DNA from: an uncultured Sulfitobacter sp.
GTDB taxonomy: Bacteria > Pseudomonadota > Alphaproteobacteria > Rhodobacterales > Rhodobacteraceae
DNA: 64,000 bases
Assembly: GCF_947497275.1 (NCBI RefSeq)
Contig: NZ_CANMFS010000007.1
Coordinates: 80,955-144,954 of the forward strand
Reading direction: 5' to 3'
This document shows, piece by piece, positions 3,505 to 31,559 of this stretch (its first letter is position 1; each line of letters opens with the position of its first letter). The notes beneath the pieces are model-generated. The model was not told the DNA's origin and searched no databases. It was given only the letters and a program-made list of their open reading frames with translations. The position numbers and the translations under genes are program-made.

Positions 3505-4398
3505 TCACCCCGACGTTTTCCGCCCTTTTAACGCCTCGAAGCCGATAATTACATCCAAAAGCTCGGTCGTGATCTCATCCTGCCGCACCGTGCGCGTTTC
3601 CGACATCAACGCATCCAGCCGGTCATCCACGGATTGCTCGGCCTGTTGCATTAACGCAAGCCGCGCGGCGTTCTCGGTGACAAGGGCTTCGGCCGCAGCC
3701 CTGAACAGGCTTGCAAACAGATGTCCGCGGATCAGCGCCACAAACAAATCCCCCGATTCCATGGTATAATGCGGCAGGCTGCGCGAAACCCACGGTGTGC
3801 TTTGCAGCTCCTGCACCAACCCGGGGTCAAGCGGCAGTAACGGCGCGACGACGGGTGCCCGCATTCCGCCCTCGCTGCGCGCGAAATACGCCAGCGACAC
3901 GGCAACCTCGCGCGGAAGATGACGCGTGCGCAGATCATCGAGCCGCCGGGTCAGCAGATTGGCGAGCCGCCCGATGCCATCGACGGACGCCGGAGGAAAA
4001 AGTGCCTTTTCGACGTCGATCCCTTGATCAGCAAGGGCATCCGCCATCCGCGCGCCGATGCACAGGACAGTCTGCACGCGACCCGGCGCGCTGCCGATGG
4101 TGCGCGCAACATGGTGGGCCAGGGCTTCGTTGTAGTTGCCGCACAACCCGTGATCAGAACCGAAGACGACCATAACCCGCGCCGCCGCTGCACCGCGCGC
4201 GGCGTGCACCGGCCCCGTTTGCGAAAGAAATGCGTGCAGCCCCTCCAGAACTGTCGCGTGATACGCCTCGATGGCGCGGGCGGCGTGTTCATAGGGGGCG
4301 GCGTTAATGACTGACAGTGTTTTCATCGTGTGCACCACACTGCGGATGCCCGTCATGCTGGTCGTGCGCCGGGCCAGCGCCTCAAGGGTCTGGGTCAT
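3505..4398 (-). CDS. atpG: N-type ATPase F1 gamma subunit
   Basis: [51 protein letters not shown]; start MTQTLE at 4398. Confidence 0.92.
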
Positions 4399-5920
4399 GC
4401 GACTTTTCCAGATTTTCCAGCGCCAGCGCGCCAAGTGCCGCCATCCGCGCCCGCGCGGCATCGTCAAAGGGCACATTCTGCGCGATCTGCCCGGCGATAT
4501 CGTCAAGGTCGCGCGCGGCGGCCTGACGGACCGCATGCATCGCTGACTGCATGCGGGCCTCGTCCAGCCCGTCGAACTGTCCATCCATCGCCGCGATCAG
4601 AACGGCAAGCTGTTCGACCGCCGGGATCGGATCGCGTTCGGCCTGCCGCAGCGACAACCGCACCGCCGCGCCGCGTTTCAACCGCGCGCGCGTCGCATCG
4701 TCAAGCCGGGTGCCGAACCGCGCGAAATCCTCCAGCTCTTCGAACTGCGAAAGGGTCACGCGCAGGTTTCCCGCCACCGACCGGAACGCGCGGCTTTGCG
4801 CCTTGCCCCCCACCCGGCTGACCGACACTCCTAGATCCACCGCCGGAAACTGGTTCTTGCGGACCAGACGCGGCGACAGATAGATCTGTCCGTCGGTGAT
4901 CGAAATGAGGTTGGTCGGGATATAGGCCGACAGGTTTTCCGCCTGCGTCTCGACGACCGGCAGGACGGTGATGGACCCGCCGCCGATCGACGGGGCGAAC
5001 TGGCCCGCACGTTCAAGAAGCCGTGCGTGAATGTAGAAGATATCGCCTGGAAACGCCTCGCGCCCCGGCGGTCGGCGCAGCAGCAGCGACAGTTCCCGAT
5101 ACGACCGGGCGTGGTGCGTCATATCGTCCAGCACCACCAGAACATCGCGGCCCTGCGCTGCAAACTGCTCGGCCATCGTCATCGCGGCGTAGGGCGCAAT
5201 ATAGGCAAGCCCCGCCGCCCCCTCGTCGCCCGCCGCCACGATCACCGTGCGCCCCATCATCCCACCGTCGCGCACCGCGCCAATGACCTTGGCCACCGCA
5301 TCGCCGCGCTGCCCTATGGCGCAGTAGATACAGATGACATCGGTGTCCTTCTGGTTCAGGATCGCATCCACCGCGACCGAGGTCTTGCCGGTCTGCCGGT
5401 CCCCGATCACCAGTTGCCGCTGTCCCAACCCGATGGGGACCGCCGCATCTATCGCCTTGATCCCCGTCGCCAGCGGGCGGGTGATGGCCTTGCGGTCAAG
5501 GATATCGGGCGCTTGCGCCTCTACGGGGTGCCGCGCATCCGCCTTGATCGGCCCGCCGTCGTCCTGCGGATGTCCCAGGGCATCCACCACCCGGCCCAGC
5601 AACCCTGCGCCGACCTGCGTACTCACCACCCTGTGCGTCCGCATCACCCGTTCCCCCACGACGATATCCGCCGACGGCCCCAGCAGCACGACGCCCAGCC
5701 GCCCCGGTTCCAGATCCAACACGATGCCCTGCACGCCACAGGCAAACTGCAAAAGCTCATCCGAAAGCGCGCGCGCCAATCCCGTCACGACGGCAATCCC
5801 GTCGGCCACCTCGGCCACCTGCCCGACCTCGCTGATGCGGGGCGGCGGTGCGGGACTGTCCAGCAGCGCCCGGACAAGCGTCTCGGGATGCGGCCGCAGT
5901 ATCCTGATATCATTGTCCAT
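4382..5920 (-). CDS. atpA: N-type ATPase F1 alpha subunit
   Basis: GDRQTGKT Walker [32 protein letters not shown]; start set at MDNDIR (5920). Confidence 0.95.
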
Positions 5921-6680
5921 GCGAAGCAGGTTCCAGATCGCCACCACCGGCCAGCCGCGCGGTGATCGACGCGTCCAGCCCGTCGACGTAGGACTCGACC
6001 GTCCAGGCCAGCTGCGCCCCGCCCATGCGCATCACCAGACCGGGCGACTGATCCGCATCCGTTTCAAATTCGACGGTCACACCGGTAAACGCCGCCGCGA
6101 TTGCGCTACGCAGCGTTTCGCGCACATCCGAACCAAGCGGCGCGCGGCTTGAAATCACGGCCTCCGTCGCCTGTCCCGCAGCGGTGCGCAAATCAGCCGC
6201 CACTGTCTCGATCCTTGCGATCAGGTGCCGTGCCACCCGTTCCTCGAACGTGTCGTCCGCCAGATCCGTCAGCGCCTTGCGCGTGAGCGACAACAGCGCA
6301 TCGGCCCCGATGTCCTGCAATCTCGCAGCATATTTTTTCGCTTCCGCCGCCAGCTGCGCCTGCCAGCCGGCCTGCTCCTGCTCCATCGCCGCGCGGGCGT
6401 CCGCCAGCAGGGTGTCGCGCTGTTCCTCGGCCTTACGGCGCACCGTCTCCATCATATCCGCCTGCGCCACGTTCAGCGCCCGCAACTTTTCCTCATAGGC
6501 CTCTTCGCGCGCCTTCGCCGCTTCCTTCACCGTCTCCGCCTCGCGCATGCGGGCGGTGATTTCCGCCTCGCGGGCGTCGATCCCGTCAAGAATGGGCCGG
6601 TACAGGAACCGCTTGAGCAGCCACACGAGCACCAGAAAATTGGCGATCTGTGCCGCGACAGTGATCCAGTCGATGGACAC
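5910..6680 (-). CDS. atpF: N-type ATPase F0 b subunit (long form with C-terminal delta-like extension)
   Basis: [32 protein letters not shown]-terminal TM, coiled coil, 256 aa; no separate atpH in the operon. Confidence 0.9.
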
Positions 6681-6683
6681 GGG

Positions 6684-6971
6684 TCAGTTCCCTGCGCCCT
6701 GCGCCGCTTCCAGCGCGGCAATCCAGAACGGATTGGCAAAGATCAGGATCATCGCAACGACAAAGCAATAGATCGCCGTGGATTCGATCATTGCAAGGCT
6801 CACGAACAGGGTGCGCGAAATGGTCGGTGCCGCATCGGGCTGCTGCGCGATGGAGTTCAACGCAGTCGATGCCGCGCGCCCCTCGCCAAGCGCGGGACCG
6901 ATGGCGCCGATGGAAACGGTCAGCCCGGCGGTAAAGATCGAGATGCCGGCGATAAGTCCAAGGTCTGTCAT
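6684..6971 (-). CDS. atpE: N-type ATPase F0 c subunit
   Basis: GxGxGxG-like GAIGPALGEG, AQQPDA loop, AMIESTAIY ion-binding motif. Confidence 0.95.
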   Translation of the reverse strand: MTDLGLIAGISIFTAGLTVSIGAIGPALGEGRAASTALNSIAQQPDAAPTISRTLFVSLAMIESTAIYCFVVAMILIFANPFWIAALEAAQGAGN

Positions 6972-7663
6972 GGATTGTCCTTTTCGGAATGGGAAGGGGG
7001 CGGCGGTGCGGTCGCGCTGGAAATATAGACCGTCGCGAGGATCGCGAAGATATAGGCCTGGATCATGCCGGTCAGCAGGCCCAACACGTCCATCACCACC
7101 GGAAAGAAGAACGGCGCGACGCTAAGCAGGATCGCGGCGATCACCGCCCCGCTCATGATGTTGCCGTAAAGGCGGATGGCCAGAGAGACGCCGCGCGAAA
7201 ACTCCGAGATGATGTTGAACGGAAGCATGACGACCGACGGCTGCACATAGGTCTTGAGGTATCCGCCGATGCCCCGGTTCGACACGCCGAACATCGGCAC
7301 AGCGATCAGAACCGACAGCGCCAGCGCCGTGGTGGTCGACAGCGACGATGTCGGCGGCTCGAACCCCGGCACGACCAGCAGCAGGTTCGACACGGCAACG
7401 AACAGAAATAGCGTCCCCGCGAAATACAGCAGATGGCGCGACGGCCCGGGTGCGATCTCTGCGATCTGGCTCTGGATGCCCTGCACGATCACCTCCAGCG
7501 TCGTGCGCCAGCGGTTGGGCGGCACATCCGGGCGCAGCCTGCGCGTGATCAGCATTGAAGCCACCGTCAGCAACGCCATCACGATCCAGGTATAGAAAAC
7601 CGTCGCGTTGATCGCGACGCCCGCAAGCTCGAACATGATGATTTGATCGGGGGTGAGGGTCAT
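6968..7663 (-). CDS. atpB: N-type ATPase F0 a subunit
   Basis: Hydrophobic protein; SLAIRLYGNIMSG containing the conserved Arg; GMIQAYIFAILATVYI. Confidence 0.93.
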   Translation of the reverse strand: MTLTPDQIIMFELAGVAINATVFYTWIVMALLTVASMLITRRLRPDVPPNRWRTTLEVIVQGIQSQIAEIAPGPSRHLLYFAGTLFLFVAVSNLLLVVPGFEPPTSSLSTTTALALSVLIAVPMFGVSNRGIGGYLKTYVQPSVVMLPFNIISEFSRGVSLAIRLYGNIMSGAVIAAILLSVAPFFFPVVMDVLGLLTGMIQAYIFAILATVYISSATAPPPPSHSEKDNP

Positions 7664-7947
7664 GGAGCGTCACCGGCACGGACCAATGTGATCGCGCCCA
7701 TTCGCACCACGAGAAACGCAAGCGCAAAGCCCGCGAACGCCCAGACGCCGCCCTGCTGCACCACGCCCCACCCCGCTGCGAGCAATACCGCAATGCGCAA
7801 CGCGGCGCTTAGCGCCAGAAAACCGACCGGCGTGCGCGTGCGCAGGGCGAGCCGCATGCCAACCTTCAGCCCGGCAAAGAACAGGACGCTGAGCACGGCA
7901 CCAATCGCCAGACCGCCCGCAACCGCCGCCCAGTCAACCTCTGTCAT
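7660..7947 (-). CDS. atpR: N-ATPase AtpR-like small membrane subunit
   Basis: 95 aa hydrophobic, FFAGL..G, SAALR motifs; position between atpQ and atpB is diagnostic of N-ATPase operons. Confidence 0.75.
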   Translation of the reverse strand: MTEVDWAAVAGGLAIGAVLSVLFFAGLKVGMRLALRTRTPVGFLALSAALRIAVLLAAGWGVVQQGGVWAFAGFALAFLVVRMGAITLVRAGDAP

Positions 7948-8227
7948 TTGTCACCTCCTTCTCTGCCGACCCATGCCGCTGCAATGAAAGCGCCCAGAAC
8001 GACGCCCCCGAGGATCAGCGCGATTGTCCATGAAAACCCCTGCGGTGCCACCCGGTCCAGCCAAAGACCCAGAAACGCGCCGCCCACCGTGGGCACCGCG
8101 ATGGACCAACCGATCATCCCGAAAGTGCCGATGCCGCGCAGCGGACTTGGTCCCGGATCATCGCGGCGCGCCTTCATGCGGCGGGCCTGCCGCGCGATTT
8201 CTTCGGTGGATCTGTCGGGTTTCGGTG

Positions 8228-8231
<4 letters not shown>
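7944..8231 (-). CDS. atpQ: N-ATPase AtpQ (ATPase gene 1/AtpZ family)
   Basis: GMIGWSIAVPTVGGAFLGLWLDR motif; two TM helices; operon position. Confidence 0.8.
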
Positions 8232-10949
<2,718 letters not shown>

Positions 10950-11008
10950 ATCAGACCTCCCCTTTCACGGCATCTGTCAGACCACTACTGTGAAACATGC
11001 ATCTGCCC

Positions 11009-12253: not shown

Positions 12254-12346
12254 CTGACTGTCTCCTGCTGATCAAGTTGCGTCCGCGTGCCCACCCTTGG
12301 GGCGCGTGGCCTGCGCACTGAATGACACCGCGCCGCAGCGCCCGCA

Positions 12347-12360
12347 TTGACGTAGGTCAA
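12347..12360. promoter_or_regulatory. FNR/FnrL/FixK-type binding site TTGAC-N4-GTCAA in the arcA / MaoC-pta divergent region
   Basis: ttgacgtaggtcaa, a symmetric match to TTGA-N6-TCAA. Confidence 0.75.
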
Positions 12361-12534
12361 TCACCGGCCACCGTTGGCCGCTAGTCAGGCGAAAACCTGA
12401 TCGCAGGGGTGCCCGCGTGCTCCGGTCAGGCGGCTGTGCGCCGCGCGATTGATCTGATAGAAACACCGGGTGCGCATCGCGCGCTTCGACACACGCAGGA
12501 CTCCGCAAGACCCCGAACCCAAAGGCAGACACAG

Positions 12535-13932
12535 ATGCAATTCATCGAAAACAGAACCTACGAAGAAATCGAGATCGGCGAGACGGCAGAGCTGACGCGC
12601 ACACTGAAGCCCGAAGATATCGAGATGTTCGCGGTCATGTCGGGCGATGTGAACCCCGCGCACGTCGATTCCGCCTATGCCCGTTCGGACATGTTCCACA
12701 AGGTCATCGCCCACGGCATGTGGGGCGGTGCCTTGATATCTGCCGTGCTGGGCACCGAACTTCCCGGTCCGGGTACCATCTACCTCAATCAGAACCTGAA
12801 CTTTCGCCACCCCGTCGGACTGAACGACACCGTGACGATCCGTGTCACCGTGACAGCAAAGGACGATGCGCAGCATCATGTCGCGCTCGACTGCCTGTGC
12901 CTGAACCAGACCGGCGAGACGGTGATCGAAGGGCAGGCAACCGTTATCGCACCGACGGTCAAGGTACGCCGCCCCCGCGTGGCCCTTCCCGAAGTGCACC
13001 TGCACGAACGGGGCGCACGGTTCAACGAGCTGATCGATGCGACGGCGGCGCTTGATCCGGTGCGCACGGCGGTCGTGCACCCCTGCGATGCCCTCTCGCT
13101 CGAAGGTGCATTGGAAGCGGGCGCGCGCGGGCTGATCGTGCCGGTCCTGATCGGACCAAGGGCCAGGATCGACGCCGTCGCCACCGAGATCGGGCGCGAC
13201 CTGTCGGGCGTTGAGGTCGTCGATGTGCCCCACAGCCATGCCGCCGCCGAACGTGCGGTCGCACTTGGCCGCGCCGGTGACGTCCACATGTTGATGAAAG
13301 GCAAGATTCATACCGACGAGTTGCTCAACCCGGTCGTAAACCGCGACACCGGTCTGCGCACCGAACGCCGGATGAGCCATGTCTTCGTGCTGGACGTGCC
13401 GAACTATCCCAAACCGCTGCTGATCAGCGACGCCGCGATCAACATCTTTCCCGACCTGCCGACCAAACGCGATATCGTGCAGAACGCGATCGAGCTCGCC
13501 CACGCGCTCGGCATCACTATACCCAAGGTCGCGATCCTGTCGGCGGTCGAAACGGTCACGCCCGACATCCCCTCGACAATCGACGCCGCCGCCCTGTGCA
13601 AGATGGCGATGCGCGGCCAGATCACCGGCGGCGTTCTCGACGGGCCGCTGGCCATCGACAACGCCGTGTCCATGGCGGCGGCGCAAACCAAGGGGATCGA
13701 ATCGCAGGTGGCGGGCCAGGCCGATATCCTGATCGTACCCGATCTGGATGCCGGCAACATGGTGGCCAAACAACTGATTTATCTGGCCGGGGCCGATGCG
13801 GCAGGCCTGGTTCTGGGCGCGCGTATTCCGATCGTGCTGACCAGCAGGGCCGACGGCGTCATGTCACGCCTCGCATCTGCGGCGATGGCACAGCTCTATG
13901 TCCACCACCACACCGGCGGACATCGGACATGA
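12535..13932 (+). CDS. Bifunctional MaoC-like (R)-enoyl-CoA hydratase / phosphate acetyl(butyryl)transferase
   Basis: N-terminal FAVMSGDVNPAH..IAHGMWGG hotdog motif; C-terminal LMKGKIHT, DAAINIFP, LDGPLAIDNA, LVLGARIPIVLTSRAD. Confidence 0.9.
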   Translation: MQFIENRTYEEIEIGETAELTRTLKPEDIEMFAVMSGDVNPAHVDSAYARSDMFHKVIAHGMWGGALISAVLGTELPGPGTIYLNQNLNFRHPVGLNDTVTIRVTVTAKDDAQHHVALDCLCLNQTGETVIEGQATVIAPTVKVRRPRVALPEVHLHERGARFNELIDATAALDPVRTAVVHPCDALSLEGALEAGARGLIVPVLIGPRARIDAVATEIGRDLSGVEVVDVPHSHAAAERAVALGRAGDVHMLMKGKIHTDELLNPVVNRDTGLRTERRMSHVFVLDVPNYPKPLLISDAAINIFPDLPTKRDIVQNAIELAHALGITIPKVAILSAVETVTPDIPSTIDAAALCKMAMRGQITGGVLDGPLAIDNAVSMAAAQTKGIESQVAGQADILIVPDLDAGNMVAKQLIYLAGADAAGLVLGARIPIVLTSRADGVMSRLASAAMAQLYVHHHTGGHRT

Positions 13933-15104
13933 ACGGCGTCTACCTCACGCTCAATGCCGGATCGTCGAGCCTGAAATTCGCACTGTTCGACAGCGCCGCG
14001 TCATCGGCGGATCCCCTGCTCAAGGGCACCGTCGCGGGAGTTGGCGGAACCCCTGCCTTTACCGCGCGTGGGGCGGATGGCGCAAAAATCGACACCGGCG
14101 TCGCACTGGACGGCGCCAGCGACCATGCGGAGGTGATCGCGCGGCTGCTGCCGTGGCTCGCGGCGCAGCACGCGGGCCGCCCGCTTCTGGCGGTCGGACA
14201 TCGCGTGGTGCACGGCGGACAGCATTTCCCCGAGCCCACCCGCATCACGCCCCCCGTGCTGGCACAGCTTCAGGACCTCGCCCCCCTCGCCCCGCTGCAC
14301 CAGCATCACAATCTTGCCGCCATCCGCGCGGTTGCACAGCGCGAACCCGACGTGCCGCAGATCGCCTGTTTCGACACCAGCTTTCACCGCACGCAGAGCC
14401 ATCTGGCGCAACAGTTCGCCCTGCCCCGCACGCTGACCGACCAAGGCATCATTCGCTACGGCTTTCACGGGCTGTCCTACGATTATATCGCAAGCACCCT
14501 GCCCGAACATCTGCAAGACGGCGCCGATGGCCGTGTTGTCGTTGCCCATCTTGGCAACGGATCCAGCATGTGCGCCCTGCACGCCCGTAAAAGCGTGGCG
14601 ACCACAATGGGCTTCACCGCGCTGGACGGCCTGATGATGGGCAGCCGCTGCGGCACCCTGGATCCCGGTGTCATCCTGCACCTGATCCAGCACGAAGGGA
14701 TGCGCGCGGACGAGATCGAAACCCTGCTCTACACCCGGTCCGGCCTGCTGGGCGTGTCCGGCACGAGCAACGACATGTACGTTTTGCAAAACACCGATAC
14801 CGCCTCCGCCCGCGATGCGATCGACATGTTCTGCTACCGCGCCGCTTGCGGGCTTGCCGGGCTGGTGCCGTCGATCGGCGGATTGGACGCGCTGGTCTTT
14901 ACCGCCGGGATCGGTGAGAACTCCGCGCTGGTGCGCACGAAAATCTGCGGATGGCTCGATTGGCTGGGCGTTTCGCTGGACGATGTCGCGAACGACCAAG
15001 CCGCGACAGTGATCAGCGCGGCATCCTCACGGGTGAAGGTTCTGGTCGTCCCAACCAACGAAGAGGCGGTCGTCGCCCGTGCATGCCGCGCGCTCGTGCG
15101 CTGA
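13929..15104 (+). CDS. ackA: Acetate/propionate kinase
   Basis: LNAGSSSLKF, GHRVVHGG, PLAPLH, ACFDTSFH, RYGFHGLSY, HLGNGSS, FTAGIGENS, PTNEE; ATGA overlap with the upstream gene. Confidence 0.95.
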   Translation: MNGVYLTLNAGSSSLKFALFDSAASSADPLLKGTVAGVGGTPAFTARGADGAKIDTGVALDGASDHAEVIARLLPWLAAQHAGRPLLAVGHRVVHGGQHFPEPTRITPPVLAQLQDLAPLAPLHQHHNLAAIRAVAQREPDVPQIACFDTSFHRTQSHLAQQFALPRTLTDQGIIRYGFHGLSYDYIASTLPEHLQDGADGRVVVAHLGNGSSMCALHARKSVATTMGFTALDGLMMGSRCGTLDPGVILHLIQHEGMRADEIETLLYTRSGLLGVSGTSNDMYVLQNTDTASARDAIDMFCYRAACGLAGLVPSIGGLDALVFTAGIGENSALVRTKICGWLDWLGVSLDDVANDQAATVISAASSRVKVLVVPTNEEAVVARACRALVR

Positions 15105-17240: not shown

Positions 17241-18212
17241 TCATGCTCCCAGTCTGGCGCGAGGGTCGAAATCCATCTCGCGCGCCATCTCTTCGTACAA
17301 CTCCTTGGCCCGCGCGCTTTCCACCGGCGGGATGACGATCTTGAGCACCGCAAACAGATCGCCCGCGCGCTTGCCCGGTATGCCGCGCCCCTTCAGCCGC
17401 AGCTTCTTGCCCGTCTGCGCATGTTTCGGGATCGTCAGTTCCACGGTGCCGCTTGGTGTCGGCACACTGATCCGTGCGCCCAGTGCGGCTTCCCACGGGG
17501 CGATGGGCAGATCCATGAAAACATCCCTGCCCTCGACGCGGTAGGCCGGGTCGTCCCTGATCGCCACCTCCAGGTAGAGATCCCCCGGCTTGCCCCCGCC
17601 CATCCCGGCAGAGCCTTTGCCCGACAGGCGGATATGCTGGCCTTCGGTCACACCCTTCGGGATCGAGACGCGGATGGTACGTTCACGCAAAACAACATGC
17701 CCGTCGGGATCAAGCTCGGGCGCGCGCAAGGTAAAATCACGCGTCCCGCCCTGATAGGCTTCGAGCAGGTCGATGACGATCTTGGCATGATGGTCCTGCC
17801 CCGGCGCGCTGAACTGATGGCCCTGCCGCATGTGCGGTGACGGTCCACCGCGCTGCCTGCCCTGCCGCGCGAACAATTCGTCAAAGAACGATCCGAACCC
17901 GCTCGGATCGGCCTCGGTATAGCCGCCGCCGGAAAATTCAAAACCCTCGTCCCAATCGGGCGGCGGATTGAACGACTGTCCCTCTTTCCAGTTGGCACCC
18001 AACTGATCGTAGGCGGCGCGCTTTTCGGGGTCCTGCAACACCTCGTAGGCCTCGCCGACATCCTTGAACATCCGCTCCGCCTCTGCGGCGTCCGGCCCGG
18101 TGTTCACGTCCGGATGGTATTTGCGCACAAGTTTGCGGTAGGCACGCTTGATCTCGTCCTGCGGTGCAGTCCGCTCGACACCCAGTATCTTGTAGTAGTC
18201 CTTGTATTCCAT
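17241..18212 (-). CDS. cbpA: DnaJ-class co-chaperone / curved DNA-binding protein CbpA
   Basis: MEYKDYYKILGV, KYHPD J-domain, G/F-rich linker, no zinc finger, C-terminal GDLYL/GRGIPG. Confidence 0.92.
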   Translation of the reverse strand: MEYKDYYKILGVERTAPQDEIKRAYRKLVRKYHPDVNTGPDAAEAERMFKDVGEAYEVLQDPEKRAAYDQLGANWKEGQSFNPPPDWDEGFEFSGGGYTEADPSGFGSFFDELFARQGRQRGGPSPHMRQGHQFSAPGQDHHAKIVIDLLEAYQGGTRDFTLRAPELDPDGHVVLRERTIRVSIPKGVTEGQHIRLSGKGSAGMGGGKPGDLYLEVAIRDDPAYRVEGRDVFMDLPIAPWEAALGARISVPTPSGTVELTIPKHAQTGKKLRLKGRGIPGKRAGDLFAVLKIVIPPVESARAKELYEEMAREMDFDPRARLGA

Positions 18213-18335: not shown

Positions 18336-18349
18336 TTGATAAACCGCAA
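18336..18349. promoter_or_regulatory. FNR/FixK-like site TTGAT-N4-CGCAA between cbpA and the antiporter
   Basis: ttgataaaccgcaa; one perfect half-site, the other half 3/5. Confidence 0.5.
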
Positions 18350-18464
18350 CTGATCCGTGCTTATCACCGGCGTCGCGCCGACCTGTTGCATATATTTTCA
18401 CGCGCATCGCGCCCCGGCCCCGTTTTACCGGTGCGCCCGCCCGATGATATGCTATCCCGACGAC

Positions 18465-20969
18465 ATGGACATCATTCTGATCACGACCGTCATCGCGGCC
18501 CTGTTTCTTGTCATCGGCGTGGCCGAGCCGTTGGCCGCGCGGTTGCGCCTGCCCTACAGCGTCATTTTGGCCCTCGTGGGCATCTTGATCGCGGCGGGCG
18601 CGTTGTTTTTCCTGCGCACCGAGCTGACCGATGCGCTCAACCCCGTGGCCGAGGCGATCCTCGGCCTGCCGATCCGGTCGAATGTGTTCCTGTACGTCTT
18701 TCTGCCGACGCTGCTGTTTCAGGCCACCCTCGGCATGAACCTGCGCCGTATGCTGGACGACTGGGTGCCGATCCTCGTTCTGGCCGTCGTCGCGGTGGTC
18801 GTGGCGACGCTTGCCGTCGGATATGCCCTGTCTTGGACAAGCACCCTGCCGCTGGCCGCCTGTCTGCTGATAGGCGCCATCGTGTCCACCACCGATCCGT
18901 CCGCCGTGGTGTCGATCTTCCGCTCCATTTCCGCGCCCCGCCGCCTTGCCCGCATCATCGAGGGCGAAAGCCTGCTGAACGACGCGGCGGCCATTGCGCT
19001 TTTCGGCCTGTTCATGGGGTTCGTGATGCTGGGCATCCCCGATCCCACGCTCAGAGATGCGCTGGCGCGGTTTCCGCTGCTGATCGCAGGCGGCGCGGTT
19101 GTCGGCTGGATCGCCGCGCGCTGTGCTGTCTGGCTGATGGCCGCCTTTGCGCGCTACGAACTGGCACAAATCTCCATTTCCGTCTCCCTGCCCTACCTCG
19201 CCTACATCCTTGCCGAACAAAGCATCGGTGCCTCCGGCGTAATCGCAGTGGTCGCCGCCGGTCTGACCCTCAACCTCACAGGTCCGGGCCGCCTTCCGCC
19301 GCAGGCCTGGACCAACCTGCGCGAGCTGTGGGACATCCTCGCCCACTGGGCCGGCGCGTTGATCTTCATCCTCGCCGCCCTGCTGATCCCGCGCCTGCTC
19401 GAAGAGGTACGCATCGGCGACATAGCCCTCGTCGCCGTCGTGGTGCTGGCTGCCATCGCCGCCCGCGTGATCATCCTGTTCGGTCTGCTGCCACTGCTGA
19501 CCGCGCTGCGCTTGTCGCCAGCGGTCGAGCGACCCTACCGCGTGGCGATCCTATGGGGAGGCCTGCGCGGAGCCGTTACGCTGGCGCTGGCGCTCGCCGT
19601 CACCGAAAGCTTCCGCGTCCCGGTCGAGGTCAAGCGACTCGTCGGCATCCTCGCCACGGGTTTCACGCTGTTCACGCTGGTCGTACAGGGGACCACGCTG
19701 CGCTCGGTCATCCGCTGGCTCGGGCTTGATCGCCTGTCGCCGCTCGACGAAGCCCTCTCGCGCCAGATCGTCGCCGTCGCCCTTCAAACCGTACGCGAGG
19801 ATGTCGCGCGCACCACTGAAAACTATGACCTGACCCACGATATCGTCCGCTCCGAGGCCAAACGGTTCGGCGAAAGGCTCGATGCGGCGGTGAAATCAGC
19901 CGAGGAAAACGTCGACATTCTCGACCGCGACAAGATCACACTGGGGCTGATCGCTCTGGCCGGACACGAGCGTGACACGATCCTCGCCCGCGTGCGCGAA
20001 CGGACGATCTCGGCGCGCATGGCCGAACAGGTACTACCGGACGCCGACCGCCTGATCGAAGGCGCGCGGTCGGACGGGCGAAACGGCTACCAGCGCGCGG
20101 CCCGGCGCAGCGTCGCCTACGGGCGCGGCCTGCGCGCCGCCGTGGTGCTGCACAGCCGCCTGCGCCTGTCCGGTCCGCTCGCCCGTATGACCGCCGACCG
20201 GTTCGAGCTTTTGCTATCGCAGCGGCTGGTCCTGCGCGATCTGGGCGCGTTCATCGACGGGCGCATCCGCCGCATCCACGGCCGCCGCGTCGCGGACCTG
20301 CTCCACGATCTGCTGTCGCGCCGGATTGAAACGGTAGAGACGGTACTCGAAGGGATGCGGCTGCAATACCCCGGTTACGCAGAAGAGCTCGAACGCCGCT
20401 TCATCCGCCGCACCGCTTTGCGGCTCGAAGAACGCGAATACGCCACCATGCGCGAGGATGGCCTGATCGGCGCTGAGGTTCATACCAAGCTGATGGAGGA
20501 CCTGAATGCGCGGCGCGCCGCCGCCGAACTGCGCCCGCGTCTCGACATCGCGCTCCAGCGGATCGAACTCGCCCGCCAATTCCCCCTGTTCGCCGATCTT
20601 GACGCCGCCGGTCTCAAGCGGTTGGGGCGGGTGTTCCAGACCCGATACGTCAACGCGGGCGACACCGTCATCAGCAAGGACAGCCCGGCCAGGCAGGTGT
20701 TCTTCATCGCCTCCGGCGCGGTCGAACTGGAAACCGCCGGGCAGACGTGGCGGCTGGGCGGTGGCGAGATGTTCGGCCAGATGGCCATTTTGATGAAACG
20801 CGCCCGCCGCACCGAGGTCCGTGCCATCGCGCCTTCGACCCTGCTGGTGCTGGATGAAACACGGTTCCGCCGGCTGCTCGACCGCAGCAAGACCCTGCAA
20901 AAGGCCGTGCGCGCCAGTGCGGAAAAACGCGGTATCGAACCCGATGCTTTCCTGCTGACTGAACGCTAA
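18465..20969 (+). CDS. CPA1-family Na+/H+ antiporter with long cytoplasmic region and C-terminal cyclic-nucleotide-binding domain
   Basis: FLPTLLF, GAIVSTTDPSAV, IIEGESLLNDAAAI, WGGLRGAVTLALAL; C-terminal FPLFADL..VFFIASGAV..GEMFGQMAIL..RRTEVRA. Confidence 0.9.
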   Translation: MDIILITTVIAALFLVIGVAEPLAARLRLPYSVILALVGILIAAGALFFLRTELTDALNPVAEAILGLPIRSNVFLYVFLPTLLFQATLGMNLRRMLDDWVPILVLAVVAVVVATLAVGYALSWTSTLPLAACLLIGAIVSTTDPSAVVSIFRSISAPRRLARIIEGESLLNDAAAIALFGLFMGFVMLGIPDPTLRDALARFPLLIAGGAVVGWIAARCAVWLMAAFARYELAQISISVSLPYLAYILAEQSIGASGVIAVVAAGLTLNLTGPGRLPPQAWTNLRELWDILAHWAGALIFILAALLIPRLLEEVRIGDIALVAVVVLAAIAARVIILFGLLPLLTALRLSPAVERPYRVAILWGGLRGAVTLALALAVTESFRVPVEVKRLVGILATGFTLFTLVVQGTTLRSVIRWLGLDRLSPLDEALSRQIVAVALQTVREDVARTTENYDLTHDIVRSEAKRFGERLDAAVKSAEENVDILDRDKITLGLIALAGHERDTILARVRERTISARMAEQVLPDADRLIEGARSDGRNGYQRAARRSVAYGRGLRAAVVLHSRLRLSGPLARMTADRFELLLSQRLVLRDLGAFIDGRIRRIHGRRVADLLHDLLSRRIETVETVLEGMRLQYPGYAEELERRFIRRTALRLEEREYATMREDGLIGAEVHTKLMEDLNARRAAAELRPRLDIALQRIELARQFPLFADLDAAGLKRLGRVFQTRYVNAGDTVISKDSPARQVFFIASGAVELETAGQTWRLGGGEMFGQMAILMKRARRTEVRAIAPSTLLVLDETRFRRLLDRSKTLQKAVRASAEKRGIEPDAFLLTER

Positions 20970-21259
20970 ACCCCGTCGATGAGGATATCCAACGCGCGTT
21001 TCAGCGCGTCCCGGTGCGCGTCCAGCGATCCCACCCGCTCGCGCAATTCCGATCCGGTCACCGCCGCAAGCTCCATCACCCGCACGATCCAGATCTGGCC
21101 GTCTACCTCCACTTCCGGCGTCAGGCCGGGAAACGCGGCATACCGATCCGCCGCCCGCAGCGGTGCTACGACACGCGATGCGTCGATCCCGATCAGATCC
21201 GTCTGAAGATCCACGACAAGCTGCCCACCGGTCAGGCGGTATACGTCAAACTGCGCCAT
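20966..21259 (-). CDS. ccdB: CcdB-family toxin
   Basis: MAQFDVYR, VVDLQTDL, RVVAPL, LTPEV, ALDILIDGV C-terminus. Confidence 0.88.
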   Translation of the reverse strand: MAQFDVYRLTGGQLVVDLQTDLIGIDASRVVAPLRAADRYAAFPGLTPEVEVDGQIWIVRVMELAAVTGSELRERVGSLDAHRDALKRALDILIDGV

Positions 21260-21266
21260 GCCGCGC

Positions 21267-21488
21267 CTAGAAGCTTCTGTACTGTGCCAATGGTAAACCG
21301 TCCCGGTCCACCTCTTCGCCGTAGGCCGCGATCGCCGCCTGGTTTTCCAACCGCCACAAGCGGTTGCGTTCGGTCTTGGCCGCCTCAAGGATTGCCGCTT
21401 CGGCAAGGCGCGACATGTTCAGGCCCAGCGTGCGCGCCGTTTCCGCGACATCCGCATCCAATGTCAAATTCACTTTCACGCGTCCCAT
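21267..21488 (-). CDS. ccdA: CcdA-family antitoxin
   Basis: KVNLTLD..ARTLGLNMS ribbon-helix-helix; WRLENQAAIAAY..GLPLAQYRSF. Confidence 0.9.
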   Translation of the reverse strand: MGRVKVNLTLDADVAETARTLGLNMSRLAEAAILEAAKTERNRLWRLENQAAIAAYGEEVDRDGLPLAQYRSF

Positions 21489-21606: not shown

Positions 21607-22986
21607 TTAGCCGACGATGTTGATCGCCTTCACGTTGACGAACTCGCGCATCCCGAAACCGCCGTGTTCGCGCCCGTACCCGGACCGTTTCACACCGCCG
21701 AACGGCATGTTCGGTTGTGCCAGACCAAAGCCGTTGATGAACACCATGCCGGTATCAAAGTGGTCCGCGGCAAGCTGCGTCGCCTTCTCAACATCTTTGG
21801 AGAAAATACCGCCGCCAAGACCGTACTCGCTGTCATTGGCGATCCGCATCGCGTCGTCGGTATCCTTGGCGCGGATCAGCGCCGCCACCGGACCGAACAG
21901 CTCATCGTCATACGCGGGCTGACCCGGTGCCACATCTTCCAAAACGGTCGCGGGATAGAAGAATCCCGACCCCTCCGGCACTTCGCCACCGCACACGATG
22001 CGCGCGCCCTTCTGGACGCTCTGCTGTACCTGTTCGTGCAGATCATCGCGCAGGTCTTCGCGCGCCATCGGGCCGATATCCACACCGTCCTTGGTCGGAT
22101 CACCATGTTTGATCGCCTTCATCGCGTCGACGAACGCATCCCGAAACTTGTCATAGATCGCATCTACCACGATAAACCGCTTCGCTGCGACGCAGGTTTC
22201 GCCGTTGTTATAGACACGGCCCTGTACACACATCTTGACGGCCTGGTCCAGGTCGGCATCCGCCAGCACCACATAGGCGTCGTTCGACCCCAGTTCGAGC
22301 ACGGATTTCTTCAGCGCCTTGCCGGCCTTTCCGCCGACGATCTCGCCCGCAGCGGGGCTCCCCGTCAGTGTCACGCCGCGCACCAGATCATTGTCGATCA
22401 CGGCGTCGGACTGGTCATGGCTGATCTTCAGAACGGTGAACAGATTTTCCGGCAGACCCGCCTCGGCATAAATGGTTTCCAGCATCACGCCCGTACCGGT
22501 CACGCTCGCGGCGTGTTTCAGCAGAACGCCGTTGCCAGCCATCAAATTGGCAATGGAATAGCGCACGACCTGATAGACCGGAAAGTTCCACGGCTGGATG
22601 CCGTAGATGACACCGATGGGCGAATGCACGATCTTGCCGCGTCCGCCCCCCGGCAGGTCACGGTCCTCTGACGCCAGCGCCTCGGCACCGTTGTCCGCCG
22701 TCCACTCGCAGATAGAAGCACACAGGTCGATTTCCTGACGGCTCTGGCTGACCAGCTTGCCCATTTCCGCCGTCATCAGATCGGCCAACGCATCCGCGTT
22801 CTCGCGCAGGCCCTCGCCGATTTTCTTCAGGATTTCCCCGCGTTCCTCGAACGACTTGTGGCGCCACTCCAGAAACGCATCGTGACATGCGGCTATCGCA
22901 TCGTCGCGCTGCGTGTCGGTCATCAGGTCGTAGTGTTCCAGCACATCGCCGGTTGCAGGGTTGATCGTCGTCAATTGATCGGTCAT
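21607..22986 (-). CDS. NAD(P)-dependent aldehyde dehydrogenase, succinate-semialdehyde dehydrogenase (Sad/GabD1)-like
   Basis: GIQPWNFP, LLKHA, TLTGS, VLELGSND, NNGETCVAAKR, ELFGPV, PFGGVKRSGYGRE. Confidence 0.9.
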   Translation of the reverse strand: MTDQLTTINPATGDVLEHYDLMTDTQRDDAIAACHDAFLEWRHKSFEERGEILKKIGEGLRENADALADLMTAEMGKLVSQSRQEIDLCASICEWTADNGAEALASEDRDLPGGGRGKIVHSPIGVIYGIQPWNFPVYQVVRYSIANLMAGNGVLLKHAASVTGTGVMLETIYAEAGLPENLFTVLKISHDQSDAVIDNDLVRGVTLTGSPAAGEIVGGKAGKALKKSVLELGSNDAYVVLADADLDQAVKMCVQGRVYNNGETCVAAKRFIVVDAIYDKFRDAFVDAMKAIKHGDPTKDGVDIGPMAREDLRDDLHEQVQQSVQKGARIVCGGEVPEGSGFFYPATVLEDVAPGQPAYDDELFGPVAALIRAKDTDDAMRIANDSEYGLGGGIFSKDVEKATQLAADHFDTGMVFINGFGLAQPNMPFGGVKRSGYGREHGGFGMREFVNVKAINIVG

Positions 22987-30173: not shown

Positions 30174-31376
30174 TTATGCGTCCGTCGAAACGTCCGTCTC
30201 CGCAAAGGCATCCGGCGCCATATCCTGCCAGAACGCCTGTATCGCCCCGAAATTCAGCGCGGACATCCATCCGTGCCGATCAAAATCCGACAGCGCGGCC
30301 GCGCTGTCGATGGAGGATGCGAACAGCCTGCGATCTGCGTCGCGTTGCGTCGGGGTGCGCGAAGCGGCCAGATCGCGCACCTTCGCCAACGCGCGCGCAC
30401 GCGACGATGTGGGCGGGCTCGCCGCCCCTGCCCCGGTCCGCCCAAAATCATCCCGCAGCGCCGCACTCAGGTAGCCCACTGGGTTCTGAACGCCCGATTT
30501 CCCGGCTACGAATGTCAGTTTGTCCAACATCACATCCTCGCCGTGCTCGGCGATCCATTGCCGTGCCAACCGGTCCGCAACCCCCAGCGCCTGCAGTTTT
30601 TCGTACACGTCCGATTTGCGCGCCCCTGCCCCGTCATCCAGATCCAGAATCGCCAGTTGCGGGTTTTCCTTGATCCGGAACCGGATCTCCGACACCGCCC
30701 TGCCCCGCTTGCGGATCTCGGGCGTCACCAGAATGTTCGAGGTCCGGTTCACTTCGGCCACCGCCGGTTTGATGATCTTAGCGTTGAGATGCTTGTAAAC
30801 GCCGTAATAGGCACTGTCCTCAATGCCCATCAGCCGGCGGAACAGGTCAAGGGGCCACCACCCGGTGCTGCCGGTGCGCACGAAGCGATAGCAGTTTTCA
30901 TAAAGCGCCAGCGCGTGCCCGCTGGTAAACCGGCGCTGAATATTGAGGTTGATCAACGCGAATACCTTCGGATCATCCAGCTTTGCCGCGAGGGCCGGGG
31001 AATACGCGTATTCGCACACCCCACCCTTGAGTCGCGCATAGCTCAGAAGGCTTGATACCCCCCACTCCTGCTGGCCCTGATCATCAAGCATGTCCCATTC
31101 CGCAACAGTCTCTGCGAGGCCTCTTAGAGACGCTTTGAGTGTCTCTATGTCGTTAGAATTGTAACCGATCATCATGCACAGCGTTCGTGCGTCGATCATA
31201 TGCACCTGCTGACGCGTCAGTGTATCGTAGGCATTGAGCAGCAACACGTTGCTCAGCTTGCGCTGCAACAGCGTCAGCTTGCCCGACACATGAATCGCCG
31301 CCACATGTTTTTTCACCGATCCACGCCTCAGCGCGCCGGTAAGATGTTGCTTGGGAATGTCTTCGTGTTTGTCCAC
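30174..31376 (-). CDS. Plasmid replication initiator (Rep_3-like; resembles Rhodobacterales DnaA-like replicases)
   Basis: RRGSVKKHVAAIHVSGKLTLLQRKLSNVLLLNAY, FTSGHALALYENC, YKHLNAKIIKPAVAEVN; divergent from parAB; GTG start at 31376 with gagg RBS (the ORF is open to 31475). Confidence 0.8.
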   Translation of the reverse strand: MDKHEDIPKQHLTGALRRGSVKKHVAAIHVSGKLTLLQRKLSNVLLLNAYDTLTRQQVHMIDARTLCMMIGYNSNDIETLKASLRGLAETVAEWDMLDDQGQQEWGVSSLLSYARLKGGVCEYAYSPALAAKLDDPKVFALINLNIQRRFTSGHALALYENCYRFVRTGSTGWWPLDLFRRLMGIEDSAYYGVYKHLNAKIIKPAVAEVNRTSNILVTPEIRKRGRAVSEIRFRIKENPQLAILDLDDGAGARKSDVYEKLQALGVADRLARQWIAEHGEDVMLDKLTFVAGKSGVQNPVGYLSAALRDDFGRTGAGAASPPTSSRARALAKVRDLAASRTPTQRDADRRLFASSIDSAAALSDFDRHGWMSALNFGAIQAFWQDMAPDAFAETDVSTDA

Positions 31377-31559
31377 TGTCGCCCTCACCTCGGCGGAATT
31401 TTTCCCGCTCTCGCTCGTTCTCTCATTCTGGCCCAACAGGAACCCCGTGGCAAGAGACCTTCGGACACCTTTCAACCCACGGGCCTCCGTAGTCGCAGAT
31501 CAACTGAAGGAACCCATTTGCGGGACGCGTGGCATCCACCGAACGCGTCGAATCCTGAA

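Follow-up and report, generated by a model that had tools for sequence, protein, structure and literature searches.

One FNR-type box between an arginine deiminase-N-ATPase operon and a maoC::pta-ackA operon in Sulfitobacter: probably a compacted derivative of a recurrent Roseobacter-group neighborhood

The arcDABC promoter of Pseudomonas aeruginosa is reportedly activated by ANR with ArgR as a helper (Gamper 1991, Galimand 1991 and Lu 1999, as cited in PMC5039431), and arginine fermentation is said to be switched on there in anoxia. In Rhodobacter (Cereibacter) sphaeroides the RSP1257-1254 genes (phbC, fabI, pta, ackA) are bound by FnrL at TTGAGcaagATCAA and activated by it, as found by chromatin immunoprecipitation on microarrays (ChIP-chip) and expression analysis, while a single FnrL site in the same organism (TTGATgtagGTCAA) activates the two divergent operons RSP0466-4 and RSP0467-8 (Dufour et al., 2010, PMC2908626). 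In Dinoroseobacter shibae arcABC is followed by the N-ATPase genes (Dshi_0432-0443; Ebert et al., 2017, PMC5398030), and in Burkholderia cenocepacia J2315 the lxa locus, which has a TGA-N6-TCA motif and aids anoxic survival, includes a polyhydroxyalkanoate (PHA) synthase, a phosphate acetyl/butyryl transferase and an acetate kinase that are up 75- to 224-fold at low oxygen (Sass et al., 2013, PMC3721108). That FNR-type activators switch on arginine fermentation or Pta-AckA at low oxygen is already known from Pseudomonas (ANR), Rhodobacter (FnrL) and Burkholderia (lxa). Here we analyze a stretch of 64,000 nucleotides from an uncultured Sulfitobacter sp. (contig NZ_CANMFS010000007.1, positions 80,955 to 144,954; hereafter the window), in which one such box, TTGACGTAGGTCAA, lies in the divergent gap between a leftward arginine deiminase operon that continues into a nine-gene N-ATPase operon and a rightward operon for a fused enoyl-CoA hydratase/phosphotransacylase (MaoC::Pta) and an acetate kinase (Table 1). 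We propose, with a probability of roughly 0.7, that this box is the site of a Crp/Fnr-family activator (FnrL or Dnr) driving arcA-arcC-N-ATPase and probably maoC::pta-ackA. An earlier note on this DNA had placed a box at 12347-12360 within a 281-bp divergent region, and all of these coordinates are correct; its description of the two arms, an arginine deiminase/N-ATPase unit to the left and a hydratase-phosphotransacylase fusion coupled by an ATGA overlap to an acetate kinase to the right, was likewise borne out by profile matches, which add a carbamate kinase and show the N-ATPase operon to be complete.

The box fits the inverted repeat TTGA-N6-TCAA (consensus TTGAT-N4-ATCAA) at 10/10 palindromic positions, and its center (12353.5) is separated from the ATG of arcA by 100.5 bp and from that of maoC::pta by 181.5 bp. 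Four exact copies of TTGA-N6-TCAA occur in the window (0.66 expected), of which this is the only intergenic one, the rest lying within coding sequences, and TTGAY-N4-RTCAA occurs twice (0.17 expected). The box is thus unlikely to be a product of chance, and it is very probably a genuine Crp/Fnr-family site. A promoter scan found no sigma-70 consensus promoter in the 281-bp gap, which fits activator dependence; no terminator or Rfam element was found there by the corresponding searches, and folding of both predicted leaders gave no unusual RNA fold. The TTGAY-N4-RTCAA copy at 22961 was set aside, lying inside an aldehyde dehydrogenase coding sequence. A lone TTGAT half-site is present at 12449-12453, about 80 bp 5' of the maoC::pta start; its partner TAGAA is mismatched and it was not counted as a box.

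Control of the left arm is indicated by the relatives of the arc operon, for which we assembled contigs with close ArcA homologues and two plasmid records, giving 10 independent loci. The usual order in these is a transporter (ArcD or DcuC/YfcC type) followed by arcA, arcB and arcC, and in Roseovarius nanhaiticus, R. arcticus, Litorivita, Litoreibacter and Celeribacter indicus a complete N-ATPase operon is tightly coupled after arcC. Immediately relevant is the region 5' of the first arc-operon gene, where an exact TTGA-N6-TCAA box is found in 8/10 loci (R. nanhaiticus, R. arcticus, Litorivita, Litoreibacter, Pseudorhodobacter turbinis, Tistrella, Pacificibacter and one metagenome lineage) and a box with one mismatch in the other two (Celeribacter indicus and an R. 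mucosus plasmid). From the background density of boxes in arc loci (0.011 per 200 bp), the probability of finding at least 8 exact boxes in 10 loci is about 1e-14. The centers of the exact boxes lie 60.5 bp (L092), 92.5 bp (L087), 94.5 bp (L090), 102.5 bp (L091), 105.5 bp (L089), 107.5 bp (L084), 130.5 bp (L004) and 182.5 bp (L094) from the first arc gene, and those of the one-mismatch boxes about 102 bp (L095) and 125.5 bp (L093), so that six of the ten fall at 92-108 bp, a range that includes the distance in the window. In D. shibae, which shares the linkage of arc genes to N-ATPase with the window, arcA, arcB and arcC rise in anoxia (log2 +1.76, +2.24 and +1.25) and are reduced in dnrD, dnrE, dnrF and fnrL mutants, with the N-ATPase genes rising by only +0.35 to +0.96 log2 (PMC5398030). 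Conservation and spacing together make it probable, and in our view by a comfortable measure, that the box controls the arc/N-ATPase arm.

The case for the right arm rests on a second comparison set, 80 genomic loci around MaoC::Pta homologues. Homologues of the fusion are abundant (more than 8000, many already named by NCBI), and in most of the 80 loci the AckA gene follows the fusion gene. The canonical unit, present in alpha-, beta- and gammaproteobacteria, is phaC-fabI-maoC::pta-ackA, encoding in addition a class I PhaC-like synthase and a FabI-type enoyl reductase, and boxes precede phaC in 16/45 loci when exact and in 31/45 when up to one mismatch is allowed, concentrated in Roseobacter relatives. 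Exact boxes stand 54-72 bp 5' of the phaC start in 10 or more Roseobacter-type loci, and a GATA-like -10 element lies about 21 nt past the box in loci of this type, corresponding to class II spacing. The R. sphaeroides RSP1257-1254 operon resembles this unit in gene order, annotation and the FNR box upstream, with RSP1255 as the putative fusion gene; the window differs from it in having no phbC or fabI and in sharing its more distant box with a divergent operon. For such sharing the RSP0466-4/RSP0467-8 site is a direct precedent, with the same one-box, two-operon architecture as proposed here and unrelated genes (ubiD, U32 peptidases). On this evidence we rate the odds that the box also controls maoC::pta-ackA as slightly better than even.

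Several observations weigh against the proposed reading, beginning with the geometry of the right arm. The window box lies about three times as far from maoC::pta as the relatives' boxes lie from phaC, making control of the right arm less certain, and an exact box within 400 bp 5' of maoC::pta itself is found in only 2/78 relatives, such boxes being few because in most relatives the fusion gene comes after phaC and fabI and the box precedes phaC. In D. shibae pta2/ackA (Dshi_0632/0633, possible homologues of the fusion operon) are located away from the arc genes and barely regulated, with +0.6 and +0.7 log2 in anoxia and no drop in the fnrL mutant, and the tables for this organism give no predicted box for arcA (PMC5398030). 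The same data show arcA/B/C dropping most in the dnrD mutant (-0.98, -1.20 and -0.53) and less in the fnrL mutant, so the regulator need not be FnrL; the sequence does not decide between FnrL and Dnr, the FNR, FixK and DNR subfamilies having a target consensus in common (Dufour et al., 2010, PMC2908626). Among the window open reading frames (ORFs) scanned there is no Crp/Fnr regulator gene, and both candidate -10 elements flanking the box are weak. The window also has no arcB or arcD by tblastn with the ornithine carbamoyltransferase, ArcD and DcuC-type proteins of relatives, and without arcB the arginine arm alone cannot make carbamoyl phosphate. Between arcA and arcC there are only 59 bp (10950-11008), the place of a 1-kb arcB in relatives, and since the closest ArcA relatives (89-90% identity) retain arcB and the transporter, the loss in the window is recent; D. 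shibae also keeps arcB. The locus therefore does not encode a complete arginine pathway and would need ornithine carbamoyltransferase from elsewhere, so that of the arginine fermentation arm in the earlier note arcA and arcC are present, with arcB and arcD missing. PhaC has no match in the window either, which bears on the link to polyhydroxybutyrate (PHB) taken up below.

The alternative that best survives this evidence is that the box serves arc/N-ATPase only and that the 174 bp from the box to the maoC::pta start codon contain a promoter of its own for maoC::pta-ackA, unlinked to oxygen or otherwise controlled. The arc-typical spacing on one side and the long one on the other, the near-unresponsiveness of D. 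shibae pta2/ackA to anoxia and fnrL deletion, and the rarity of boxes close to maoC::pta all fit it. We nevertheless regard it as unlikely, for in R. sphaeroides FnrL acts directly on the homologous operon, and one site there also drives two divergent operons; the right flank of the window box resembles the phaC-promoter box of Roseovarius (L002, L003; 83% over 29 bp); no other promoter-like site was found in the gap; and in one relative (L018) a box likewise stands 194.5 bp before a maoC::pta gene with no preceding phaC. The Roseovarius likeness could also be taken to mean that the box is an old phaC-promoter box left after deletion of phaC and fabI, driving maoC::pta-ackA only, with arcA under another signal. 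This is very improbable, as the likeness is weak over a short length (E = 0.27), there is a resemblance of these flanks to the arc-side boxes of L087 and L090 as well, and arc-side conservation is very strong with a matching distance. Searches of the gap for phaC/fabI remnants by blastx and blastn returned only noise. A palindrome without function, or one bound by a Crp/Fnr-like protein sensing something other than oxygen or nitric oxide (cAMP, or an arginine-linked ArcR-type protein), would accord with the lack of a regulator gene among the window ORFs scanned, with the reported control of arc operons by ArcR-type Crp/Fnr proteins in Gram-positive bacteria (references in PMC5039431) and with a truncated Crp-type helix-turn-helix (HTH) gene after the arc operon of L084, but is hardly to be reconciled with cross-genus conservation at a fixed distance, the same box type before the FnrL-bound phbC-fabI-pta-ackA of R. 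sphaeroides and the response of D. shibae arcABC to anoxia and Dnr/Fnr mutants.

Under the activator reading that we prefer, a fall in oxygen would lead a dimer of FnrL or of a Dnr paralogue, regulators responsive to oxygen or nitric oxide, to bind the palindrome at 12347-12360. The bound dimer would activate the leftward arcA-arcC-N-ATPase promoter in class II geometry and probably also the rightward maoC::pta-ackA promoter (leader of about 140 nt), the predicted class II starts being near 12312 on the minus strand and near 12395 on the plus strand. Expression of both units would thereby increase in concert, and the ATP made by carbamate kinase and AckA would, as the gene linkage suggests, drive the N-ATPase as an ion pump. 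The candidate -10 elements on both sides have counterparts at about the same spacing in relatives: TCATTG in Pacificibacter (L004) and TATTTT or TAATCT in others on the arc side, and GATAnn or TATCA in phaC promoters at the position equivalent to TAGTCA. A seawater metatranscriptome contig spans arcA up to 12281, giving a leader of at least 28 nt that is compatible with a start at 12312; in all, three short metatranscriptome contigs cover arcA and none covers maoC::pta, and coverage is too thin to judge the right arm. For this organism we infer bidirectional activation and the identity of the regulator. The low-oxygen switch that the earlier note had assigned to both arms is thus favored by the boxes conserved before both operon types, by FnrL binding in R. 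sphaeroides and by anoxic induction of arcABC in D. shibae, and it is the right half of that claim that has become less certain, given the 181.5-bp distance and the slight induction of D. shibae pta2/ackA.

Table 1. Features of the divergent locus, in window coordinates.
Feature	Position	Strand	Basis or remark
Crp/Fnr-family operator (FNR box) TTGACGTAGGTCAA	12347-12360		perfect palindrome TTGAC-GTAG-GTCAA
Divergent promoter region, 281 bp	12254-12534		arcA ATG (12253, minus) to maoC::pta ATG (12535, plus)
Candidate -10 TCATTC (predicted, weak)	12320-12325	-	22-27 nt past box, arcA side
Candidate -10 TAGTCA (predicted, weak)	12382-12387	+	22-27 nt past box, maoC side
arcA, arginine deiminase, 414 aa	11009-12253	-	NF002381 537 bits (cut-off 414); Pfam ADI 375 bits
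arcC, carbamate kinase	10026-10949	-	NF009008 433 bits (cut-off 361); TIGR00746 367.5 bits
N-ATPase operon, nine genes	3505-10029	-	profile matches and gene calls of near-identical contig L081
N-ATPase beta	8635-10029	-	TIGR03305 alt_F1F0 beta 729 bits, just below cut-off 752
N-ATPase epsilon	8228-8638	-	
N-ATPase gene1/AtpQ	7944-8231	-	Pfam ATPase_gene1 match
N-ATPase AtpR	7660-7947	-	Pfam AtpR match
N-ATPase a	6968-7663	-	
N-ATPase c	6684-6971	-	ESTxxY motif and helix-1 Glu
N-ATPase b	5910-6680	-	
N-ATPase alpha	4382-5920	-	
N-ATPase gamma	3505-4398	-	
maoC::pta, fused (R)-specific enoyl-CoA hydratase and Ptb-like phosphotransacylase, 465 aa	12535-13932	+	MaoC_dehydratas and PTA_PTB domains; NF006045 ('bifunctional enoyl-CoA hydratase/phosphate acetyltransferase') 759 bits (cut-off 282)
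ackA, acetate/propionate-family kinase	13929-15104	+	translationally coupled to maoC::pta by ATGA overlap

The ATPase of the left arm is of the N type, as shown by the gene order beta-epsilon-AtpQ(gene1)-AtpR-a-c-b-alpha-gamma, the absence of a delta subunit and the presence of both AtpR and gene1/AtpQ, the diagnostic N-ATPase proteins. Its beta gene starts within the end of arcC, stop and start overlapping by 4 nt. The c subunit has a glutamate in helix 1 (..ALGEG..) and the sequence IESTAIY in helix 2, which we take to be the Na+ ligand set (helix-1 Glu plus ESTxxY) of the Na+-binding type reported by Dibrova et al. (2010). These motifs agree with a pump that exports Na+ rather than with the H+ type that B. 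pseudomallei is reported to have.

In the right arm the hydratase motif SGDVNPAH (Asp38, His43) and the SRxD of the Pta domain are invariant in an alignment of 14 homologues, suggesting that both halves of MaoC::Pta are probably active. The Pta domain scores 312 bits as a phosphate butyryltransferase and 58 bits as a classical Pta, which places it nearer to the former. For the kinase, a butyrate kinase identity was rejected, the acetate/propionate family scoring 348 bits and the butyrate kinase models 35-56 bits. The co-occurrence of PhaC, FabI, MaoC::Pta and AckA as a set in relatives suggests a route from PHB to ATP, in which (R)-3-hydroxybutyryl-CoA would be converted to crotonyl-CoA, butyryl-CoA and finally acyl phosphate and ATP. 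The first and third enzymes of this route are not encoded at the present locus; in the window the search for the two gave only a 26% match to a short-chain dehydrogenase/reductase (SDR) at 39 kb. A PHB link is thus not encoded at this locus, and the earlier suggestion that the acyl-CoA derives from PHB falls back on the phaC and fabI of relatives. The safest reading of the right arm here is the conversion of short-chain acyl-CoA, acetyl-CoA included, to acyl phosphate and ATP. A Burkholderia review mentions an 'unusual' phaJ-pta fusion beside phaC, ackA and fabI and offers no tested function, and the lxa locus differs from the window in being a betaproteobacterial 50-gene island with no arginine deiminase genes or N-ATPase.

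The two arms are neighbors in several relatives, in less compact forms. Pacificibacter (L004) has arcA-arcD, two boxes and phaC-fabI-maoC::pta-ackA; the N-ATPase operon stands back to back with the phaC operon in two metagenome-assembled genomes (L005 with two boxes, L013 with one) and on a plasmid of Sulfitobacter sp. SK012 (L096, two boxes); and in R. nanhaiticus (L087/L088) an exporter cluster, with arcDABC-N-ATPase behind it, is divergent to the phaC operon, and each has a box. The recurrent neighborhood comprises arcD-arcA-arcB-arcC-N-ATPase and phaC-fabI-maoC::pta-ackA with one FNR box each, and the window, with a single box between arcA-arcC-N-ATPase and maoC::pta-ackA, is the most compact arrangement. 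It also contains a Rep3-family replication initiator (30174-31475) and a CcdB toxin homologue (20966-21406), suggesting that it belongs to a plasmid or chromid. Because the arc and maoC::pta-ackA modules are, in addition, often plasmid-borne in Roseobacters, a mobile, reduced copy is plausible, and the locus is probably a compacted, plasmid-borne derivative of this recurrent neighborhood.

Some features of the relatives extend this comparison. The FNR-type box before an arginine deiminase operon is a likeness to P. aeruginosa arcDABC; the window belongs to a different class, lacks arcD and arcB, continues into the N-ATPase genes and, unlike the Pseudomonas operon, has no evident ArgR-type site. 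In six relatives the arc-side boxes are adjoined by a conserved short motif, cTGTCyGC(c/t)(t/g)a (L084:6358-6368, L087:6395-6405, L092:6427-6437, L004:3094-3104, L089 and L091), that could be an arginine-regulator site and recalls the Pseudomonas ArgR half-site TGTCGC. At the equivalent position the window has ggtggccggtga, in which the motif is not clearly retained. Directly 5' of arcDABC-N-ATPase in R. arcticus and Litoreibacter sits a pair of genes for a pyridoxal-dependent decarboxylase and an Asp-Al_Ex antiporter, itself preceded by a further exact FNR-type box (L090:2726-2739 and L092:3007-3020), and in Litorivita a box (L089:2766-2779) precedes a P-type cation ATPase. The arc neighborhood looks like a multi-module, FNR-boxed 'anoxic energy' island. 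Just 3' of the arc operon of L084, which has no N-ATPase, a 75-aa Crp-type fragment (HTH_Crp_2; L084:11730-11957) might be what is left of a dedicated regulator of the Crp/Fnr family. On the SK012 plasmid acsA and genes for a fused pyruvate dehydrogenase E1, an E2 and an acyl carrier protein come after phaC-fabI-maoC::pta-ackA (L096:13247-18502), a gene set that suggests a larger acetyl-CoA-centered module.

Elsewhere in the window, the second box that the earlier note had claimed at 18336 turned out to be a one-mismatch site (TTGATAAACCGCAA, 18336-18349), a class whose frequency is marginally above chance (20 found, 12.9 expected), so that it carries little conviction on its own. It lies between a DnaJ/CbpA-like gene (17241-18212, minus strand) and a gene (18357-20969, plus strand) for a CPA1 Na+/H+ exchanger fused to a cyclic nucleotide monophosphate (cNMP)-binding domain.

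By itself the box is a confirmation and not a discovery, as each regulatory element has a characterized counterpart. Beyond this, the comparison adds a reduced, single-box form of a recurrent Roseobacter neighborhood and, of greater interest, a repeated association of the N-ATPase with two substrate-level sources of ATP under FNR-type boxes. The cellular function of the N-ATPase has been described as largely unexplored (EMBO Rep, 2017), and in the literature searched we found no paper linking it to arginine deiminase or anoxia. We tentatively suggest, at somewhat less than even odds, that the Roseobacter-group N-ATPase is an anoxia-induced, ATP-consuming export pump for Na+ (or H+), fuelled by ATP from carbamate kinase and Pta-AckA. 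Such a role would explain the translational coupling to arcC, the back-to-back siting with phaC-fabI-maoC::pta-ackA and the FNR-type boxes at the promoters, and the linkage offers a simple experimental handle in a tractable Roseobacter such as D. shibae. If the suggestion is correct, the window would represent a minimal, mobile module that keeps the membrane energized without respiration, and a poorly understood ATPase would gain a concrete, testable physiological role.

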